From IMG/VR virus record IMGVR_UViG_2695420632_000003, positions 1 through 20,169 of that record: DNA of 20,169 bases. The stretch is one strand, 5' to 3'. The notes below the pieces were generated by a model. It was given only the letters and a program-made list of their open reading frames with translations. It was not told where the DNA came from and did not search any database. Made by a program: the position numbers and the translations under genes. The DNA comes from a virus. Its lineage: Duplodnaviria > Heunggongvirae > Uroviricota > Caudoviricetes. Positions 6,327 to 19,241 of the stretch are shown piece after piece (the stretch's first letter is position 1; each line of letters begins with the position of its first letter).

Positions 6327-6537
6327 AAACGGTTTGCGGGAAAAGGAGAGTTAAGTAGAATTGCAGCGGGTGCTTGAGGCTATCTGTCTCAGGCATGAAC
6401 ACCAAAAGGCAGATAGAGAAAAGCCCCAGTTAACATTACGCGTCCGGCAAGACGCTTAACATTAATCTGAGGCCATATCTATGCTCTACACACGTAGGTT
6501 AGCCTCTTACGTGCCGAAAGGCAAGGAGAAGCAGGCT

Positions 6538-6693
6538 ATGAAGCAGCAAAAGGCGATGCTAATCGCCCTGATCGTCATCTGTTTAACCGTCATTGTGACG
6601 GCACTGGTAACGAGGAAAGACCTCTGCGAGGTACGAATCCGAACCGGCCAGACGGAGGTCGCTGTCTTCACAGCTTACGAACCTGAGGAGTAA
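6538..6693 (+). CDS. hok: Hok/Gef family type I toxin (HokD/RelF-like, 51 aa)
   Basis: Translation MKQQKAMLIALIVICLTVIVTALVTRKDLCEVRIRTGQTEVAVFTAYEPEE is a Hok-family membrane toxin as I recall it; SD AAGGAGA upstream; an in-frame upstream extension (6481) occupies the mok-like position; intrinsic terminator follows. Confidence 0.85.
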   Translation: MKQQKAMLIALIVICLTVIVTALVTRKDLCEVRIRTGQTEVAVFTAYEPEE

Positions 6694-8195: not shown

Positions 8196-8576
8196 ATGAC
8201 TGAACGCATAGAATTTGTTTTGCCTTACCCGCCAACGGTGAACACTTACTGGCGACGCCGTGGCAGCACATATTTTATCTCGGAGGAGGGAAAGCGTTAT
8301 CGCCGGGCTGTGGCGCTTATTGTTCGCCAGCAGCGGCTGAAATTAAGCCTGTCCGGAAGGCTGGCGATAAAGGTGATTGCAGAGCCACCGGATAAGCGTC
8401 GTCGCGACCTGGACAATATCCTGAAAGCACCGCTGGATGCGCTGACGCATGCGGGAGTGTTAATGGACGATGAGCAGTTTGATGAAATCAATATCGTTCG
8501 TGGTCAGCCAGTATCTGGTGGACGTATGGGGGTGAAGATTTACCCCATAATGCATGAAGAGCAGGTCAAAAAATGA
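8196..8576 (+). CDS. rusA: RusA-family Holliday junction resolvase
   Basis: Translation contains DKRRRDLDNILKAPLDALTHAGVLMDDEQ, matching the RusA catalytic region (DxRRRDLDN); typical nin-region position just upstream of Q. Confidence 0.85.
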   Translation: MTERIEFVLPYPPTVNTYWRRRGSTYFISEEGKRYRRAVALIVRQQRLKLSLSGRLAIKVIAEPPDKRRRDLDNILKAPLDALTHAGVLMDDEQFDEINIVRGQPVSGGRMGVKIYPIMHEEQVKK

Positions 8577-9394
8577 AACTGGAAGATTTACCGAAATACT
8601 ACTCCCCAAAATCCCCTGGCCTGACCGATGCATCGGCCTCAACGTCAAAAGATGCGCTGAGTATCACTGATGTGATGGCCGCGCAGGGCATGACACAGAA
8701 TCGGGCTGAGATGGGGTTTTCTGCGTTCCTGGGGAAAATGGGCATCAGTATGAATGACAGGGCGCGGGCAACAGAATTACTGGCAGATTATGCACTCAGT
8801 CGGTGCGATCGTGTGGCGGCGTTGAGAAAACTTCCGGCAGAAATAAAACCGGTAGTGATGCGCATTATGGCTTCGTATGCGTTTGAAGATTATGCCCGTA
8901 GCGCGGCGAGCAAAAAACAGTGCCCCTGCTGTCACGGAAAAAAATTTATTGAAAGCGAGGTTTTTACAAACAAGATCCAGTATCCGGATGGTAAGCCACC
9001 AGTGTGGGCAAAGTGCACAAAAGGCGTGTATCCGTCTTACTGGGAAGAATGGAAAAAAGTCAGGGAGGTGGTAAAAGTTGCCTGTCCGGAGTGTGGCGGA
9101 AAGGGTGAGGTTTCCACCGCCTGTAAGGATTGCCGTGGGCGTGGTGTCGCCATTCATCGTGAAGAGTCGGTAAAACGTGGTATGCCTGTTATCAGAGATT
9201 GCCAGCGTTGTGGTGGTCGTGGCTGTGAAAGGCTGCCATCAACGGAGGCATTTAATGCCATATGCAAAGTGACGAGTGCTATCACGCTTGATACGTGGAA
9301 AAAATCAGTGAAACGCTTTTACGATACGTTGGTGGTTCGGTTTGACATTGAAGAGGCATGGGCGGAGCGGCAGTTAAAGAGGGTAACGCGATAG
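8573..9394 (+). CDS. Late-gene antiterminator Q-like protein with four CxxCxGxG zinc-finger-like repeats
   Basis: Position between rusA and a promoter/terminator pair; start overlaps the rusA stop (ATGA); repeats CPCCHGKK, CPECGGKG, CKDCRGRG, CQRCGGRG. Functional call is mainly by synteny. Confidence 0.6.
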   Translation: MKLEDLPKYYSPKSPGLTDASASTSKDALSITDVMAAQGMTQNRAEMGFSAFLGKMGISMNDRARATELLADYALSRCDRVAALRKLPAEIKPVVMRIMASYAFEDYARSAASKKQCPCCHGKKFIESEVFTNKIQYPDGKPPVWAKCTKGVYPSYWEEWKKVREVVKVACPECGGKGEVSTACKDCRGRGVAIHREESVKRGMPVIRDCQRCGGRGCERLPSTEAFNAICKVTSAITLDTWKKSVKRFYDTLVVRFDIEEAWAERQLKRVTR

Positions 9395-9968: not shown

Positions 9969-11018
9969 ATGCTTAATACTGTAAAAATATCCAGTTGTGA
10001 GTTAATCAACGCCGACTGCCTGGAATTTATCCGGTCGTTACCCGAAAATTCTGTTGACCTGATAGTCACGGACCCGCCGTACTTTAAAGTGAAGCCTGAG
10101 GGCTGGGATAACCAGTGGAAGGGCGACGATGATTACCTGAAGTGGCTGGACCAGTGTCTGGCGCAGTTCTGGCGGGTGCTGAAACCTGTCGGAAGTCTTT
10201 ACCTGTTCTGTGGTCATCGCCTGGCATCTGATATCGAAATCATGATGCGTGAACGCTTCAGTGTGCTGAACCATATTATCTGGGCGAAGCCGTCCGGACG
10301 CTGGAACGGATGCAACAAGGAAAGCCTGCGGGCGTATTTCCCCGCCACAGAGCGCATTCTGTTCGCGGAACATTATCAGGGGCCGTATCGTCCGAAAGAT
10401 GCCGGGTATGCGGCGAAGGGCAGTGCACTGAAACAGCATGTGATGGCCCCGCTGATTTCTTACTTTCGTGATGCGCGCGCGGCCCTGGGGATAACGGCAA
10501 AACAGATTGCAGATGCCACAGGAAAGAAAAACATGGTGTCGCACTGGTTCAGTGCCAGTCAGTGGCAGCTACCGAACGAAAGCGATTATCTGAAATTACA
10601 GTCGCTGTTTGCCCGGGTGGCAGAAGAGAAACATCAGCGCGGTGAACTGGAAAAGCCCCACCACCAGCTGGTGGATACGTATACGTCACTGAACCGGCAG
10701 TATGTGGAGCTGCAGAGTGAATATAAGCATCTGCGGCGGTATTTTGGTGTGACGGCGCAGGTGCCGTACACGGATGTGTGGACACATAAACCGGTGCAGT
10801 TCTATCCCGGGAAACATCCGTGCGAAAAACCGGCAGAAATGCTGCAGCAGATAATCAGCGCAAGCAGTCGTCCGGGAGACCAGGTTGCAGATTTTTTTAT
10901 GGGCTCAGGTTCAACGGTAAAAGCGGCACTGGCGCTCGGGCGTCGTGCGATTGGCGTTGAACTGGAGACCGGACGTTTTGAGCAGACAGTCAGGGAAGTT
11001 CAGGATTTAATCGTTTGA
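9969..11018 (+). CDS. DNA methyltransferase, beta-class amino-MTase (N6-adenine or N4-cytosine), apparently orphan
   Basis: Catalytic DPPY motif near the N-terminus (LIVTDPPYF) and SAM-binding FxGxG near the C-terminus (DFFMGSGST): motif order IV then I. No adjacent restriction endonuclease candidate. Confidence 0.8.
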   Translation: MLNTVKISSCELINADCLEFIRSLPENSVDLIVTDPPYFKVKPEGWDNQWKGDDDYLKWLDQCLAQFWRVLKPVGSLYLFCGHRLASDIEIMMRERFSVLNHIIWAKPSGRWNGCNKESLRAYFPATERILFAEHYQGPYRPKDAGYAAKGSALKQHVMAPLISYFRDARAALGITAKQIADATGKKNMVSHWFSASQWQLPNESDYLKLQSLFARVAEEKHQRGELEKPHHQLVDTYTSLNRQYVELQSEYKHLRRYFGVTAQVPYTDVWTHKPVQFYPGKHPCEKPAEMLQQIISASSRPGDQVADFFMGSGSTVKAALALGRRAIGVELETGRFEQTVREVQDLIV

Positions 11019-11067: not shown

Positions 11068-11143
11068 GGCCCTTTAGCTCAGTGGTGAGAGCGAGCGACT
11101 CATAATCGCCAGGTCGCTGGTTCAAATCCAGCAAGGGCCACCA
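11068..11143 (+). tRNA. ileZ: tRNA with CAT anticodon, ileX/ileZ-like (tRNA-Ile2, lysidine type) rather than tRNA-Met
   Basis: 76 nt, cloverleaf folded by hand: acceptor GGCCCTT/AAGGGCC, anticodon loop CTCATAA, T-loop TTCAAAT, encoded CCA; close to E. coli ileX as I recall it. Confidence 0.8.
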
Positions 11144-11150
11144 TCACATA

Positions 11151-11227
11151 CCGCCATTAGCTCATCGGGATAGAGCGCCAGCCTTCGAAGCTGGCTGCGC
11201 GGGGTTCAAGTCCCCGATGGCGGTCCA
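11151..11227 (+). tRNA. argN: tRNA-Arg (anticodon TCG)
   Basis: 77 nt; acceptor CCGCCAT/ATGGCGG, D-stem GCTC/GAGC, anticodon loop CTTCGAA, T-arm CGGGG-TTCAAGT-CCCCG, encoded CCA. Confidence 0.75.
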
Positions 11228-11240
11228 TTATCTGCATCAT

Positions 11241-11317
11241 GCGTTGTTAGCTCAGCCGGACAGAGCAATTGCCTTCTAAGCAATCGGTCACTGGTTCGAA
11301 TCCAGTACAGCGCGCCA
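11241..11317 (+). tRNA. argO: tRNA-Arg (anticodon TCT, decodes AGA/AGG)
   Basis: 77 nt; acceptor GCGTTGT/ACAGCGC, anticodon loop CTTCTAA, T-arm ACTGG-TTCGAAT-CCAGT, encoded CCA. Confidence 0.8.
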
Positions 11318-11424
11318 TATTCATTCTTCCAGATTCCTTTCGGCAGAGCCTTATACTGAAATATACCTGGCTCAGGATATTGTTGAAAATATTATATGTT
11401 TGTCAAAAATAAAAGTTCTGTTAA

Positions 11425-11781
11425 GTGTTGATTGAGTGTTTGTTATACGGTCTAATGGTTTTTTCAGCATTAAATATTTATCATTCATATGGTGTGGGTA
11501 GAGTGAATATTGATGAGGCGTCGGGGTGTTTCATCCTTAGGCAGCGTATTGATATAGTCAATGCAGAACGAGCAAAGGCCTTCAGCCGTTTGACAGTTTT
11601 GTTCTGTACTCCTGATCGTCTTTCGGGAAGAGACGTTATTATTCTGAATAGTGATGCTATACAGAGGGTTTGCGATGAGTTCATGGTGGCTAATTCAGAA
11701 TTATTTGCTCTTGTTCAGGAGTACAACAGAATAGCCAGGACCTGTGGTATGGATGAACTTCGGATTACTCATCTGGGGTAG
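11425..11781 (+). CDS. Uncharacterized cargo ORF in the stx-equivalent slot (93-118 aa depending on start)
   Basis: Only long + ORF in the AT-rich segment; frame opens at GTG 11425; alternative GTG 11503 has a GGTAGAG SD-like sequence. Rich in AGA/AGG/ATA codons. No recognisable motif. Confidence 0.4.
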   Translation: MLIECLLYGLMVFSALNIYHSYGVGRVNIDEASGCFILRQRIDIVNAERAKAFSRLTVLFCTPDRLSGRDVIILNSDAIQRVCDEFMVANSELFALVQEYNRIARTCGMDELRITHLG

Positions 11782-12172
11782 ATACATATCTGGATTATCA
11801 CCGGTTACGGTAAAAAGTGATTGCTTACTGTTTTTGTGAATGGCATTGCAGCAGCCGGATAATGTCAGTGCTGGCTGACGGTGTGCTGGTGGCGGGTGTG
11901 GTGGTTGCTGCTTTCCCGTTGCTGAAAAAGAAAACGCCAGACTGTTAGCCGGGTATCAGTTAGCGGGAGAAATTTTTAAATACTTCACAATTCAGGCGGT
12001 TGACTGTTGTCTGGTTTGCGGGGAGTTTGTTAAAAGAAACTGGCATGGTGAATCCCCCTGTGCGGAGGGGCAATCAGCGAGTAGGTATATGGGATAATCG
12101 CGGATTCAGGTGCTGGTACTGAATTCACCGGGAGGCACCCGGCACCATGCAATGGCACATAGCGCCACTCTC

Positions 12173-12200
12173 CAGCCCCTCTCCGGAGGGGCTGTTTATA
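12173..12200 (+). terminator. Strong intrinsic terminator (+ strand) inside the cargo segment
   Basis: 9-bp GC-rich stem CAGCCCCTC / GAGGGGCTG with UCCG tetraloop, followed by TTTATATTGATTTT. Confidence 0.6.
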
Positions 12201-12228
12201 TTGATTTTGTCAGATGTGAGTAAACTCC

Positions 12229-12564
12229 TTATGGACTTTGTTGTTTTAGCCCATAAGGACATATTTGCAGAGTGCAACGGTTATTAAAGCATTCATTCAA
12301 TACGTTATCTGTATTTGTAGGGCATTCCTGGCTGTTTTTGATTAAATTCCAGAATGTTTTATTGAATGGTACTACGTTGTAAATGGTTACAGGCAGCACT
12401 TTGTTATTGAGCATGATGCCTGTGTGAGTCAGTGTAAATATACTTTCAGGAGGTAAGAAAGCATCCGATTGATACCAGATTATTAATTTTATTTTACTCC
12501 ATATGACTGAAAAAGATATTCCGCATGATGGCTGGATAACTGTATCAATCACAATCCACTTCAT
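12229..12564 (-). CDS. Uncharacterized Cys-rich 111-aa cargo ORF, antisense to the phage late transcript
   Basis: Long ORF in ~35% GC (stop-rich) DNA; AAGGAA SD 5 nt before ATG 12564; sigma70-like promoter on the minus strand around 12610-12650 (TTTACA ... TATACT). Confidence 0.45.
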
Positions 12565-12809
12565 TTAGTTTCCTTGTTTATGCCTTGCTGGTGATGTTCT
12601 GAAAAGTATAAATGATATTTTTGATTGTAAACCATAGAGCAGAATTATTTTTCTGATGTTGTTTATTGTTTATTTAAATGCAGGGTGGTTTATATCTCGT
12701 CTTGTAGTTTATCCATGCATATCTGCTTGATGATGAGGTTTTTAATTAAGGTATGGTTTTGTGTTTTTTCTGTATTACATGTCAGGTATTTTAAAGAATC
12801 ATTTTTCAG

Positions 12810-14678
12810 ATGGTGGAAAGAACCATGGCATTTAAACACTATGATGTTGTCAGGGCGGCGTCGCCGTCAGATCTTGCGGAAAAGCTGACACATAAACTGA
12901 AAGAGGGCTGGCAGCCGTTTGGTAGTCCGGTGGCCATAACCCCTTATACCCTGATGCAGGCGATTGCAGCAGAAGGTGATGTGGTCGTCAGTGGTGCAAC
13001 TGAGCCGGAGTGGTACTACGTCATCGTACTGGCCGGGCAGTCCAATGCCATGGCTTACGGTGAAGGGCTTCCGCTTCCGGATTCATACGATGCGCCCCAT
13101 CCGCGCATTAAGCAACTGGCCCGTCGTAACACAGTGACTCCCGGTGGTGAAGTATGCGTATTTAACGACATCATTCCTGCTGACCATTGTCTGCATGATG
13201 TTCAGGATATGAGTACGATTAACCATCCCCGGGCTGACCTGAGCAAAGGGCAGTACGGCTGTGTCGGCCAGGGCTTACATATTGCCAAAAAACTGCTTCC
13301 GTATATCCCTAATAATGCGGGGATCCTGCTGGTACCATGCTGTCGTGGTGGTTCGGCATTCACCCAGGGCACGGAGGGGACATTCAGCGAGTCCACGGGG
13401 GCCAGTCAGGATTCGGCTCGCTGGGGAGTGGGTAAGCCGTTATATCAGGATCTGCTTTTCCGCACGAAGGCAGCATTGCAGAAAAACCCGAAAAACGTTT
13501 TGCTGGCGATATGCTGGATGCAGGGGGAATTCGATATGACGAATGCCAGTTACGCCCAGCAGCCAGCAGCATTTCTTGCAATGGTACAGCAGTTCCGTGC
13601 TGACCTTGCCGGGCTGGCAGCGCAGTGTCACGGTGGAAGTCCGGCATCAGTCCCCTGGATTTGTGGCGACACGACATACGCGTGGAAACAAGAACACGGT
13701 ACGCAATATGAAGTGGTATATGGTGCATATAAAGGTAAAGAATCCCAGCAGATTTATTTTGTTCCCTTTATGACCGATGGTAGCGGAGTTAATACACCGA
13801 CAAACAACCCGTCAGAAGATCCTGATATTGCCGGGTCTGGTTATTACGGTTCGGCATCCCGAACGAACAAAAACTGGGTATCATCAAATCGCCCGACGCA
13901 TTTCAGCTCATGGGCGCGTCGTGGCATTATTCCCGATCGTATGGCAACTGCTATTCTGAACGTAGCCGGGCGCACCTCAGCCTTCATCAGTGGTAAGGCA
14001 CCGGAAATCAAACCCTCGCCCGGCGGCGACACGCCATCGGGTCCGTCTGCAGATACGTCCGTTCGCACAATCTCCCTGCTGCCGACAGCCGGAGAGGCTG
14101 CTGCGCAGGGCTGGACCATCACCGGCGGCAGTGTTGCGCTGGAAGATGGTGTGTTTAAGGTTACCAAGCAGAGCAATAAAACCTGGTCCCTGATGCATCC
14201 GGTGGATGACGCAGTCTCCCTGCTGACACGGGGTGGCAGACTGAGCTGTAAGTTTCGACTGTCAGGCGCACTGACCAACAACCAGTTCGGTCTGGGAATT
14301 TATCTGTATACCGATGTAGCGTTACCTGACGTCGTGGCGATGACCGGGACTGGTAACCCGTTCCTGATGTCGTTCTTCACCCAGACCACAGACGGCAAAC
14401 TGAATCTGATGCATCACAAGAAAGCCGGAAACACAAAGTTGGGCGAGTTCGGGAATTACAGTAACGACTGGCAGACGCTGGAGCTGGTGTTCACCGCCGG
14501 CAGTGCCACGGTTACTCCGAAACTGAATGGAGTGGCTGGCCCGGCATTCCAGGTTATAAAAGACAGTCTGACACTGGGACTGAATGCGCTGACGCTGACG
14601 GATATTACCAAAAATGCAGCGTATGGCGTTGAGATAGAAAGTCTGGTGCTGGAGATAAATGCACCGGCATCATCATAA
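12810..14678 (+). CDS. nanS: NanS-p-like sialate 9-O-acetylesterase (SGNH/SASA hydrolase domain, N-terminal DUF1737-like region)
   Basis: GQSN motif (VLAGQSNAMAYGEG) of SGNH esterases; size and location (downstream of the tRNA triplet, upstream of S) match the yjhS/nanS-like gene of Stx prophages. True start may be ATG 12825 (MAFKHYDV..., SD GGTGGA). Confidence 0.75.
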   Translation: MVERTMAFKHYDVVRAASPSDLAEKLTHKLKEGWQPFGSPVAITPYTLMQAIAAEGDVVVSGATEPEWYYVIVLAGQSNAMAYGEGLPLPDSYDAPHPRIKQLARRNTVTPGGEVCVFNDIIPADHCLHDVQDMSTINHPRADLSKGQYGCVGQGLHIAKKLLPYIPNNAGILLVPCCRGGSAFTQGTEGTFSESTGASQDSARWGVGKPLYQDLLFRTKAALQKNPKNVLLAICWMQGEFDMTNASYAQQPAAFLAMVQQFRADLAGLAAQCHGGSPASVPWICGDTTYAWKQEHGTQYEVVYGAYKGKESQQIYFVPFMTDGSGVNTPTNNPSEDPDIAGSGYYGSASRTNKNWVSSNRPTHFSSWARRGIIPDRMATAILNVAGRTSAFISGKAPEIKPSPGGDTPSGPSADTSVRTISLLPTAGEAAAQGWTITGGSVALEDGVFKVTKQSNKTWSLMHPVDDAVSLLTRGGRLSCKFRLSGALTNNQFGLGIYLYTDVALPDVVAMTGTGNPFLMSFFTQTTDGKLNLMHHKKAGNTKLGEFGNYSNDWQTLELVFTAGSATVTPKLNGVAGPAFQVIKDSLTLGLNALTLTDITKNAAYGVEIESLVLEINAPASS

Positions 14679-14761
14679 AAAGTGAGCCAGTCAAATGGAA
14701 GGTATCGTTAAACTCACCGGTAGTGTCAGTGGGTCGTCTGAGATGCCTGCATGAGTTATCA

Positions 14762-14793
14762 GAGCCATCAGTACTTAACTGGTGGCTTTTTTT
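14762..14793 (+). terminator. Intrinsic terminator between nanS-p and the holin gene
   Basis: 9-bp stem AGCCATCAG / CTGGTGGCT (one G-U pair), loop TACTTAA, followed by TTTTTTT. Confidence 0.5.
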
Positions 14794-14828
14794 ATTGTTG
14801 TCAGCTTCCGGATAACGGGAGACGGGGT

Positions 14829-15044
14829 ATGTACCAGATGGAAAAAATCACAACAGGTGTGTCATACACCACGTCAGCGGTGGGAACGGGCTACTGGTTC
14901 CTGCAGTTGCTGGACAGGGTTTCCCCGTCTCAGTGGGCGGCAATAGGCGTGCTGGGGAGTCTGCTGTTTGGGCTGCTGACATATCTGACTAACCTGTATT
15001 TCAAAATCAGAGAGGACCGGCGTAAGGCGGCGCGGGGAGAGTAA
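14829..15044 (+). CDS. S: Class II holin, S21-like pinholin (71 aa) with dual-start motif
   Basis: Translation [71 protein letters not shown]: two TM segments, Met1/Met4 dual start, charged C-terminus; partnered with a SAR endolysin downstream. The ORF track extension to 14751 runs through the terminator and is rejected. Confidence 0.8.
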
Positions 15045-16307: not shown

Positions 16308-16745
16308 ATGAACACCAAAATCAAATATGGCCTGTCGGCTGCCGTTCTGGCGTTGATTGCCATCGGTGCGCCTGCGCCTGATATTCTCGACCAGTTTCTG
16401 GATGAAAAAGAAGGTAACCACACAACGGCATACCGTGATGGTGCGGGTATCTGGACCATCTGCCGCGGTGCCACAATGGTGGATGGTAAACCTGTTATTC
16501 CGGGCATGAAACTGTCGAAGGAAAAATGCGACCAGGTTAATGCCATTGAACGGGATAAGGCGCTGGCATGGGTGGAGCGCAATATTAAAGTTCCACTGAC
16601 CGAACCACAGAAAGCGGGTATAGCGTCATTCTGTCCCTATAACATTGGCCCCGGTAAGTGTTTCCCGTCGACGTTTTATAAGCGGCTGAATGCTGGTGAC
16701 CGCAGGGGAGCGTGTGAGGCGATTCGCTGGTGGATTAAGGACGGT
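16308..16745 (+). pseudogene. R: SAR endolysin R (R21-like lysozyme), N-terminal fragment interrupted by an IS21-family element
   Basis: N-terminal weakly hydrophobic Gly/Ala-rich SAR domain (GLSAAVLALIAIGAPA) and E-x8-D-x5-T catalytic triad (EGNHTTAYRDGAGIWT); reading frame broken after ...WWIKDG by the IS left end. Confidence 0.8.
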
Positions 16746-16938
16746 TGCGTATTTTCATGAAAGGAGATCACTCAATAACTTCCATCGAGATCGGGTAATA
16801 ACATTTGAACAGATCGCTGAATAACATCGATGGAGATCACTTTTGACTCATTTTGTTATTCAGTGATCTCCATCAATGTTATTGGAACTTCACAGGTGTG
16901 TTGATCTGTATCTTTTGCCATTCCGGTAAAGGATACCT

Positions 16939-18480
16939 ATGCCAACAGTTCCAATTTCTATGAGAAAACTTAAAGAAATTCTTAGGCTTAAATACGGTGT
17001 TGGACTCAGCCATCGACAAATTGGTCGTAGTCTTGCAATCTCCCCTTCCGTTGTATCCAGATATGCTAATCGGGCGGCTCAACTTGGCATAAAGCAGTGG
17101 CCCTTACCTACAGGATGGGATGATACAAAACTAAAACATGCGTTCCTTCAGACCCAGGTTAAGATGAAGAAGCACTCTCTGCCTGACTGGGCTACAGTAC
17201 ACCGGGAACTGCGTAATAAATGCGTGACGCTGCAGCTACTCTGGGAAGAATACTGTGAGCGTAATCCAGGCGGTTTTTACAGCTATAACCATTACTGCCG
17301 GATGTACCGTGAATGGCTCAAAACCACTTCACCATCAATGCGTCAGGTACATAAAGCTGGCGAAAAACTTTTCGTTGATTACTGTGGACCTACCGTTGGC
17401 GTTACCGACCCTGAGACCGGAGAAATAAGAACTGCTCAGGTCATCGTAGCTGTTCTCGGGGCATCAAGTTACACATGGGCAGAGGCCACCTGGTCTCAGC
17501 AGCTTGAAGACTGGGTGATGAGTCATGTTCGCTGCTTCCAGTGGTTGGGTGGCGTTCCTGAACTTGTTGTTCCGGACAATCTGAAAAGCGCCACATCCAG
17601 GGCATGTAAGTATGATCCTGACGTTAACCCTACCTACCAGCAGATGCTTGAGCATTATAATGTCGCAGTTTTGCCTGCGCGGCCACGTAAACCGAAAGAT
17701 AAAGCCAAAGCTGAAGTTGGCGTTCAGGTTGTTGAACGCTGGATCATGGCCCGAATCAGGCATGAGATCTTCTACAGCCTTGCATCGCTTAATCAGCGCA
17801 TTCGGGAGTTGCTGGAAAGACTGAATAACAAAATAATGCAGAAGTTGGGTTATTCACGTGCAGAACTCTTCATCCAGCTTGATAAACCCGCACTGAAGCC
17901 TCTTCCTGAAGCCAGTTACAGTTACACCCTGGTGAAGAAAGTCAGAGTTCATGCCGATTACCACGTGGAAATCGACAAACATTACTACTCGGTTCCATGT
18001 TCGCTGTTAGGCCAGCAACTGGAAGCATGGATCTCCGGAGAACTGGTAAGACTCTTCAATCAGGGGCAGGAGGTTGCTGTGCACCCGCGCAAGCGTACTT
18101 ATGGCTACAGTACCCGCAACGAGCACATGCCTGAAGCTCATCGACAGCATGCCACCTGGACGCCAGAGCGTCTTCTGGAATGGGCGGGGCACATAGGCAG
18201 TGAAACTCATAGTTATGTGCTTCATATACTGAACTCTCGTCCACATCCGGAACAAAGCTATCGCTTCTGCCTTGGACTCCTGAACCTTCATAAAAAATAC
18301 AGTAAAGCCAGACTTAATGCAGCATGTGCAAGAGCTCTGAAAACAAAGGTATGGCGTCTGTCAGGTATTAAATCGATCCTGGAAAAAGGTCTGGATAAAC
18401 AACCTGTTCAGGATCCAAAACCAGATCTGTTATCCACGATGGAACACGAAAACGTACGCGGCAGTGAGTATTACCACTGA
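16939..18480 (+). CDS. istA: IS21-family transposase IstA
   Basis: 513 aa with N-terminal HTH (LSHRQIGRSLAISPSVVSRY); followed 11 nt later by the IstB ATPase gene; AAAGGA SD. Confidence 0.85.
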   Translation: MPTVPISMRKLKEILRLKYGVGLSHRQIGRSLAISPSVVSRYANRAAQLGIKQWPLPTGWDDTKLKHAFLQTQVKMKKHSLPDWATVHRELRNKCVTLQLLWEEYCERNPGGFYSYNHYCRMYREWLKTTSPSMRQVHKAGEKLFVDYCGPTVGVTDPETGEIRTAQVIVAVLGASSYTWAEATWSQQLEDWVMSHVRCFQWLGGVPELVVPDNLKSATSRACKYDPDVNPTYQQMLEHYNVAVLPARPRKPKDKAKAEVGVQVVERWIMARIRHEIFYSLASLNQRIRELLERLNNKIMQKLGYSRAELFIQLDKPALKPLPEASYSYTLVKKVRVHADYHVEIDKHYYSVPCSLLGQQLEAWISGELVRLFNQGQEVAVHPRKRTYGYSTRNEHMPEAHRQHATWTPERLLEWAGHIGSETHSYVLHILNSRPHPEQSYRFCLGLLNLHKKYSKARLNAACARALKTKVWRLSGIKSILEKGLDKQPVQDPKPDLLSTMEHENVRGSEYYH

Positions 18481-18491
18481 TACGGGATCCA

Positions 18492-19241
18492 ATGATGAAT
18501 CATCTTTACGAACAACTGACCGCACTTAAACTCACCGGCTTCCGTGATGCGCTTAAAAAGCAACTTGCTCAGCCGGGCACATACCAGGAGCTGGGCTTCG
18601 AAGAACGCCTGTCATTACTGACAGCAGAAGAACTAACCTGCCGTGAAAACAGGAAGGCAGAGCGTCTGATCAAACATGCACGGTTCAGACTTAATGCTGA
18701 GTTATCAAAGCTGGATTATCGTAACAATAGAGGGCTGGACAGGGCCCTCATCCGTTCACTCAGTCAGGGAAACTGGTTAACCCTGAAACAAAATATTTTA
18801 CTGACCGGGGCCACCGGCAGCGGTAAAACGTTCCTGGCATGTGCACTTGGTCATAATGCCTGCCGACAGGGATACAAGGTCTACTATTATCGCCTTAAAG
18901 CGCTGATGGAACAGTGCTATCAGGGGCATGCTGATGGAAGATACAGCAAACTTTTGACCAGGCTGAATAATAGCGATCTGCTGCTTCTGGATGACTGGGG
19001 GCTGGAACCTCTCTCATCAGAACAGCGTAGCGACCTGCTGGAAATAGTGGATCTGATGTACCAACGAGGCTCAATCATCGTAGTGAGCCAGTTGCCGGTG
19101 GAAAACTGGTACAAAATGATCGGAGACTCCACACATGCGGATGCCATCCTAGATCGACTGGTTCATGGCAGTATCAAGATCGAACTTAAAGGAGAATCAA
19201 TGCGGAAAATACAATCTCCGTTGACCGAAGGAGATCAGTGA
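18492..19241 (+). CDS. istB: IS21-family helper ATPase IstB
   Basis: Walker A GATGSGKTFLA and Walker B LLLLDDWG; ~250 aa, typical IstB. Confidence 0.85.
   Translation: MMNHLYEQLTALKLTGFRDALKKQLAQPGTYQELGFEERLSLLTAEELTCRENRKAERLIKHARFRLNAELSKLDYRNNRGLDRALIRSLSQGNWLTLKQNILLTGATGSGKTFLACALGHNACRQGYKVYYYRLKALMEQCYQGHADGRYSKLLTRLNNSDLLLLDDWGLEPLSSEQRSDLLEIVDLMYQRGSIIVVSQLPVENWYKMIGDSTHADAILDRLVHGSIKIELKGESMRKIQSPLTEGDQ

Follow-up and report, generated by a model that had tools for sequence, protein, structure and literature searches.

The closest known counterpart of the locus considered here is iraL of strain CFT073 (gene c1429), which was found by a screen for effectors of sigma-S (Hryckowian 2014, PMC4045071). 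Its product IraL is an anti-adaptor of RssB that stabilizes sigma-S in exponential growth and acts in log phase in LB (PMC4045071). [quoted passage not shown] According to two-hybrid experiments, IraL interacts with RssB's N-terminal domain only, unlike IraM (PMC4045071). Among strains that bear iraL the identity of the locus is 96% or more, and the location of the gene was termed the 'potB genomic island' (PMC4045071). In later CFT073 transcriptomes iraL is again expressed, more strongly when fur is mutated and when the temperature is shifted to 37 °C.

The homolog in K-12, IraM (YcgW), is a PhoP-dependent RssB anti-adaptor of Mg2+ starvation with a known structure (PDB entry 8TWD). In the crystal structure, 14 residues of IraM contact RssB (PMC10844676). 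Residues 79–107 are omitted from this structure and are proteolytically unstable, and the tail that they form was termed less conserved and flexible (PMC10844676).

The window that we analysed is a stretch of 20 169 nucleotides of a Caudoviricetes virus record (IMG/VR entry IMGVR_UViG_2695420632_000003). The only open reading frame of at least 80 amino acids between positions 11782 and 12809 lies on the minus strand and encodes 111 residues, which confirms the real, Cys-rich antisense gene that the initial annotation had claimed for this region (Table 1). This gene is iraL, a prophage gene that has already been characterized, and is as such an ordinary lysogenic-conversion gene. The decisive result is that its translation is identical to that of CFT073 c1429 in 111 of 111 amino acids, and a single RefSeq accession covers both proteins. 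The CFT073 prophage at potB, in which c1429 is iraL, thus holds the very protein of the window. An alignment of the two iraL loci at the DNA level spans 681 columns with 98% identity, and the coding sequences differ by two synonymous changes. A megablast search with positions 11400–12850 of the window returns DNA of 100% identity from numerous chromosomes of E. coli, among them that of O104:H4 2011C-3493, where RefSeq names the product 'anti-adapter protein IraM' (WP_000871291.1). The initial annotation, which had proposed a homology and structure search of the protein, had missed that the gene has a name and a characterized function, and that the solved IraM–RssB complex includes its homolog.

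Table 1. Features of the window around iraL
Feature	Position	Strand	Basis or remark
Q-like antiterminator	8573-9394	plus	strand opposite to iraL
DNA methylase	9969-11018	plus	annotation
Three tRNA genes (Ile, Arg, Arg per RefSeq)	11068-11314	plus	between methylase and DUF3927
DUF3927 gene	11817-11948	plus	annotation
STnc100 sRNA, full length	12014-12203	plus	Rfam RF02076 at 132 bits (gathering score 47)
GC-rich hairpin	12173-12194		35 nt past the iraL stop codon; intrinsic terminator of STnc100 on the plus strand
AT-rich inserted module (~33% GC)	12204-12809		bears iraL and its promoter; from STnc100 terminator to nanS-p start
iraL CDS	12229-12564	minus	ATG start, 111 aa, stop codon included; ORF list, RefSeq, NCBIfam
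5' UTR, 33 nt	12565-12597	minus	start is the A at 12597; from the aligned CFT073 5'-RACE sequence
Shine-Dalgarno AAGGAA	12570-12575	minus	5 nt ahead of the start codon; visible in the sequence
-10 hexamer TATACT	12605-12610	minus	-13 to -8 from the mapped start; ends 7 nt upstream
-35-like hexamer TTTACA	12626-12631	minus	15-nt spacer to the -10 hexamer; unchanged in CFT073
nanS-p-type SASA esterase	12810-14678	plus	annotation
Holin	14751-15044	plus	annotation
Lysozyme	16308-16760	plus	annotation

IraL also belongs to the IraM/IraL/RssC family of RssB anti-adaptors. The NCBIfam model for IraM (NF007393) matches residues 1–110 with 162 bits against a cut-off of 121 bits (E = 4.7e-48), and the identity to K-12 IraM is 62% over 107 amino acids. 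Within the family, the window gene falls into the IraL subtype, since it is nearly identical both to IraL of CFT073 and to the promoter region mapped there. A scan of the protein against Pfam returned no family at E<=0.01, unlike precomputed tables, which list PF11183 (PmrD) for it; given the empty scan, the family call rested on NCBIfam, the PDB and the fold comparison. In PHROGs the family (PHROG 4407) is labelled 'unknown function'.

A phmmer search of the PDB aligns residues 1–78 of IraL with chain A of the IraM structure (8TWD_A) at E = 9e-32. An AlphaFold model built with 11 close homologs was unusable (pLDDT 48), and an alignment of 33 diverse family members was used instead. The resulting model has a pLDDT of 87, with values above 90 through residue 80 and of 57–77 in the tail; it contains strands and a helix at residues 69–77, and shows the IraM fold of an antiparallel β-barrel, a β-hairpin and one α-helix. 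It superimposes on chain A of 8TWD with a TM score of 0.90 and an r.m.s.d. of 1.2 Å over 78 columns (Foldseek). The RssB-contacting residues were compared by hand on the pairwise alignment of IraL with K-12 IraM: 10 of the 14 are identical (I4, I6, C14, F18, W22, K26, W30, I42, I61 and Y62) and the remaining four are conservatively replaced (T13S, H63N, I64V and L75I). IraL resembles K-12 IraM in family, fold, RssB contacts and the four-cysteine motif of its C-terminus, and differs from it by four extra C-terminal residues and by its reported action in log phase and through RssB's N-terminal domain only. Given this domain preference, the binding mode seen in 8TWD may not transfer fully to IraL.

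After 8TWD, the next Foldseek matches of the model are PmrD structures (4HN7 with a TM score of 0.73, 2JSO and 2RQX), with which IraL shares a small fold of a β-barrel plus helix. PmrD is a PhoP-activated connector protein that protects phospho-PmrA. Both proteins are small and bind the receiver domain of a response regulator, but they are only 14–20% identical, the target of PmrD is PmrA and not RssB, and PmrD does not have the C-terminal Cys4 tail. The order of the Foldseek matches agrees with the relationship between the IraM and PmrD folds that has been reported (PMC10844676).

The initial annotation had assigned to the gene a good ribosome-binding site and a σ70-like promoter of its own, with the hexamers TTTACA and TATACT. 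The ribosome-binding site is confirmed at 5 nt before the ATG (minus-strand sequence around the start codon: AAACAAGGAAACTAAATG), and the AAGGAA sequence is kept in CFT073, phage 2851 and vB_EcoS-640R1. For the promoter, the 5' end of the CFT073 iraL mRNA has been determined by 5' RACE as ACATCACCAGCAAGGCATAAACAAGGAAACCA (PMC4045071). The CFT073 5'-RACE sequence, ACATCACCAGCAAGGCATAAACAAGGAAAC, aligns in the window such that transcription starts at 12597 (the minus strand reads ...TATACTTTTCAGA directly followed by ACATCACCAGCAAGGCATAAACAAGGAAACTAAATG at this point), and the resulting 5' UTR agrees with the '+33' of the published fragment (PMC4045071). The two hexamers flank this equivalent of the CFT073 start, on the upstream side of 12597 when read from the minus strand. 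The -10 hexamer is unchanged in CFT073 and reads TATAAT in the phage 2851 allele. By consensus alone the hexamer pair is not above chance. A generic σ70 scan, which needs spacers of 16–18 nt, does not return it because its spacer is only 15 nt, a length that is poor for σ70. The promoter call is nevertheless right, since the hexamers fit the mapped start, which is stronger ground than consensus. Two sites that the scan did return on the minus strand (12672–12644 and 12513–12486) were set aside as they do not fit the published iraL start.

From the -35 hexamer to the start codon, the window departs from CFT073 at three bases, namely the first base of the spacer, position -1 and the base 3 nt before the ATG. 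The ribosome-binding site and the two hexamers are intact; owing to the three differences, the level of iraL expression in the window could differ from that in CFT073. Judging from the DNA, the promoter is probably active in the window's own strain. Expression in an uninduced lysogen, as anticipated in the initial annotation, is published for the identical protein at the 98% identical CFT073 locus (PMC4045071).

The name given by RefSeq and NCBIfam and the 62% identity to K-12 IraM raise the question of whether IraL behaves like the latter, as a PhoP/PhoQ-dependent factor induced by Mg2+ starvation rather than as a log-phase factor. A direct repeat resembling a PhoP box, TGTTTATTGTTTATTTA, is present at 12660–12676 on the plus strand with one mismatch, in the intergenic region between iraL and nanS-p and 63–79 nt upstream of the iraL start. 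Such a repeat is within chance expectation, with 0.40 expected and at least one found in 32 of 100 shuffles, and the DNA upstream of iraL gives no alignment with the region upstream of K-12 iraM. IraL moreover works in log phase in LB from its own promoter (PMC4045071). We consider PhoP-dependent behaviour of the K-12 type improbable.

The ratio dN/dS for iraL, calculated by the method of Nei and Gojobori, is 0.13 against the allele of phage 2851 and 0.17 against K-12 iraM. Values for the N-terminal domain (0.13–0.16) and for the C-terminal tail (0.10–0.18) are similarly low. These ratios indicate that the protein sequence is under purifying selection. When 1.8 billion representative proteins are searched with a profile, 95 family members are recovered across Enterobacterales, and the named ones are from Salmonella salamae, Citrobacter, Enterobacter, Klebsiella, Intestinirhabdus, Dryocola and Pantoea. 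That iraL might be a chance open reading frame in an AT-rich spacer and not be expressed could be argued from the silence of the consensus scan at its promoter and from the PHROGs label of the family. This reading is already refuted and its probability is negligible: a dN/dS of 0.10–0.17, the 95 representatives across Enterobacterales, a homolog with a solved structure (8TWD) and published genetics for the identical protein (PMC4045071) all speak against it.

The iraL coding sequence has a GC content of 35% and the segment 12229–12809 of 33%, compared with 49% for the whole window (GC counts and composition profile). It lies in an AT-rich module whose flanks also occur without iraL: Nil3 and other Stx-type records match the window at 11973–12199 only, and mEp460_ev081 matches at 11400–12151 only and diverges at 12151. 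With its own promoter, its deviant GC content and its presence or absence between related phages, iraL has the properties of a moron. It is opposed to the plus-strand genes for Q, NanS-p, the holin and the lysozyme, and it is thus an antisense gene inside the late region.

Immediately next to the module lies STnc100, which is convergent with iraL at a distance of 25 nt. Its terminator hairpin has a folding z-score of -3.7 on the plus strand, where it is a canonical terminator, and of -4.2 on the minus strand. In the latter orientation the hairpin is not followed by a U-tract and is not of the canonical kind, but it is the sole candidate for the 3' end of the iraL mRNA. The same hairpin and an STnc100-like sequence follow the iraM-like reading frame of phage 2851. 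An E-value scan of 11900–12900 against Rfam found nothing antisense to iraL or overlapping it, STnc100 being adjacent only. RefSeq places a minus-strand coding sequence ('hypothetical protein, incomplete') at 12033–12158, inside STnc100; this annotation is probably spurious.

Elsewhere in the window, an IS21-family pair occupies 16939–19241 on the plus strand, directly after the lysozyme reading frame, and consists of an istA-like gene, whose product of 513 amino acids has an rve and a Mu-transposase C domain, and istB (249 amino acids). With this element the lysis region of the prophage copy in the window may be disrupted. Upstream of the Q region, a sok antitoxin RNA is found at 6368–6543 on the plus strand (Rfam RF01794, 117 bits), as part of a hok/sok toxin–antitoxin locus of the hokD type. 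The phage-borne tRNA genes are of the set (Ile, Arg, Arg) that precedes stx in Stx phages.

The 'potB genomic island' of CFT073 is annotated such that iraL lies in the late region of a lambdoid prophage, and its gene order matches that of the window: Q, tRNA-Ile/Arg/Arg, DUF3927, a pseudo-CDS in the STnc100 region, iraL (minus strand), a DUF1737/nanS-p coding sequence that is incomplete in CFT073, holin and lysozyme. The two copies differ in that the window has a DNA methylase after Q and a full-length nanS-p gene, whereas CFT073 has an IS200 after Q and the incomplete DUF1737/nanS-p. The arrangement of CFT073 and the window is also seen in Escherichia phage vB_EcoS-640R1, the record of which is a partial genome. 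Phage 2851, which carries Stx2c, encodes a 107-amino-acid member of the IraM family with 74% identity (NC_049943.1, 24239–24562). This reading frame directly follows stx2cB, precedes DUF1737/nanS-p, is antisense to the late genes and has no annotated feature. The allele P0017, of 60% identity, lies between a methylase downstream of Q and a DUF1737 gene, again in the opposite orientation. Three divergent alleles (IraL, the phage 2851 type and P0017) thus occupy one antisense slot.

The slot is common but not obligatory, as follows from two further sites. The allele P0007 (71% identical; three loci) is found outside a phage late region beside IS21, GGDEF and PerC-family genes, so that the IraM family also travels on non-lambdoid islands. 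K-12 iraM adjoins the e14 remnant together with ymgK, ymgL and ycgX; unlike iraL it is not in a late operon, and none of the genes annotated around it is a late gene.

The initial annotation had suggested that the gene could be a conversion factor, could exclude superinfecting phages or could modulate the timing of lysis by transcriptional interference. The first of these holds in the broad sense that IraL alters host physiology via RssB and sigma-S. The other two would make iraL an exclusion or anti-phage factor, or a gene that mainly delays or modulates lysis by being transcribed head-on to the Q-dependent transcript. The head-on geometry is real and conserved, with all three alleles antisense between Q-proximal cargo and nanS-p, and with a plus-strand terminator just before iraL only an antiterminated polymerase should collide. 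Against an exclusion role, the search of PADLOC-DB with IraL gave 0 families at E<=0.01, and the demonstrated target of the protein is the host adaptor RssB (PMC4045071). The purifying selection on the protein (dN/dS 0.10–0.17) would be needless for pure transcriptional interference, and of the copies elsewhere, P0007 is outside any phage late region and K-12 iraM has no late gene annotated nearby. Prophage copies that bear IS elements or a cut nanS-p have kept the gene as well: in CFT073 an IS200 follows Q and the nanS-p/DUF1737 coding sequence is incomplete, and in the window the IS21-family element comes after lysozyme. Such copies are presumably no longer able to lyse their host. We find no support for iraL transcription setting the timing of lysis, and regard both an exclusion function and a main role in lysis control as very improbable.

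We are highly confident in the remaining reading, in which iraL is a moron of a lambdoid prophage, is expressed from its own σ70 promoter and encodes a product that blocks RssB, such that sigma-S is stabilized in the lysogen. In this mechanism, iraL is transcribed in the lysogen against the direction of the late operon, and the 111-residue IraL binds the response-regulator-like adaptor RssB. Bound RssB is unable to hand sigma-S (RpoS) over to the ClpXP protease. Sigma-S is then stabilized in exponentially growing cells and the regulon of the general stress response is raised, which amounts to a lysogenic conversion of the stress physiology of the host. The anatomy of the locus further suggests that the plus-strand terminator at 12173–12194 would stop ordinary rightward transcription 35 nt before iraL and in this way insulate the gene in the lysogen. 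During lytic growth, Q-modified polymerase would ignore the STnc100 terminator, meet iraL head-on and probably silence it. [quoted passage not shown]

Of 5426 complete E. coli genomes, 1446 (27%) have the iraL coding sequence together with its promoter at >=90% identity, and a genome can contain up to three copies. A tblastn search places the IraM/IraL family in 46 phage records; 41 of these are 60–80% identical to IraL and belong mostly to Stx2c- and Stx2(a)-converting phages. In most of the Stx2c and Stx2a phage records listed there is no annotated feature under the match, and one labels it iraM. The comparison with Stx phages extends to position, as iraL fills the slot between Q/tRNAs and nanS-p where these phages bear stx1 or stx2. 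In Stx phages the late transcript largely drives the expression of stx. Accordingly placed but differently controlled, stx is co-oriented with the late transcript whereas iraL is antisense to it and independent of Q. Other cargo genes of lambdoid late regions are bor and lom; in being expressed in the lysogen from a promoter of its own, iraL resembles bor.

A distinctive element of the protein is its C-terminus. IraL has five cysteines among its 111 residues (4.5%), at positions 14, 81, 92, 97 and 102. The last four form the motif CP-x9-C-x4-C-x4-CPYG in the tail comprising residues 81–111 (window positions 12229–12324 on the minus strand). All four tail cysteines are invariant or at least 90% conserved among 33 family representatives with 20–63% identity to IraL; the other columns conserved to this degree are M1, P12, W30, W72 and P103. 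Of 59 full-length representatives, 48 have the motif; those that lack it seem to be truncated or frameshifted or to have another spacing. In the IraM/IraL literature searched, zinc or the tail cysteines are not mentioned, and only ClpX's zinc-binding domain and Cys57 of RssB are. From its conservation, the Cys4 tail may be a metal (Zn) or redox site that controls the stability or activity of IraL and IraM. A broader proposal combines such control by the Cys4 tail with a switch that confines iraL to lysogeny through silencing by Q-dependent read-through and with a retuning of sigma-S in O157:H7 by the iraM-like gene next to stx2. As a whole this combination is tentative, and we think it rather unlikely that all of its parts hold together.

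The identification mainly corrects the record, in that what appeared as an unknown Cys-rich antisense gene is iraL. Phage resources still treat the family as unknown, as exemplified by PHROG 4407 and most of the Stx2c and Stx2a records listed. Higher sigma-S in growing cells means more stress resistance, which explains why a lysogen would express iraL. Beyond this, some interest remains in the tail with its Cys4 motif, in STnc100 as it converges on iraL and in the unannotated IraM-family gene beside stx2 in Stx2c and Stx2a phages. The invariant Cys4 tail may offer a concrete handle on the regulation or turnover of RssB anti-adaptors. The presence of an IraM-family gene beside stx2 in the Stx2c phages of O157:H7 links the carriage of a toxin phage to the control of RpoS; if this link is true, carrying an Stx2c phage or some of the Stx2a phages would by itself retune sigma-S in O157:H7.
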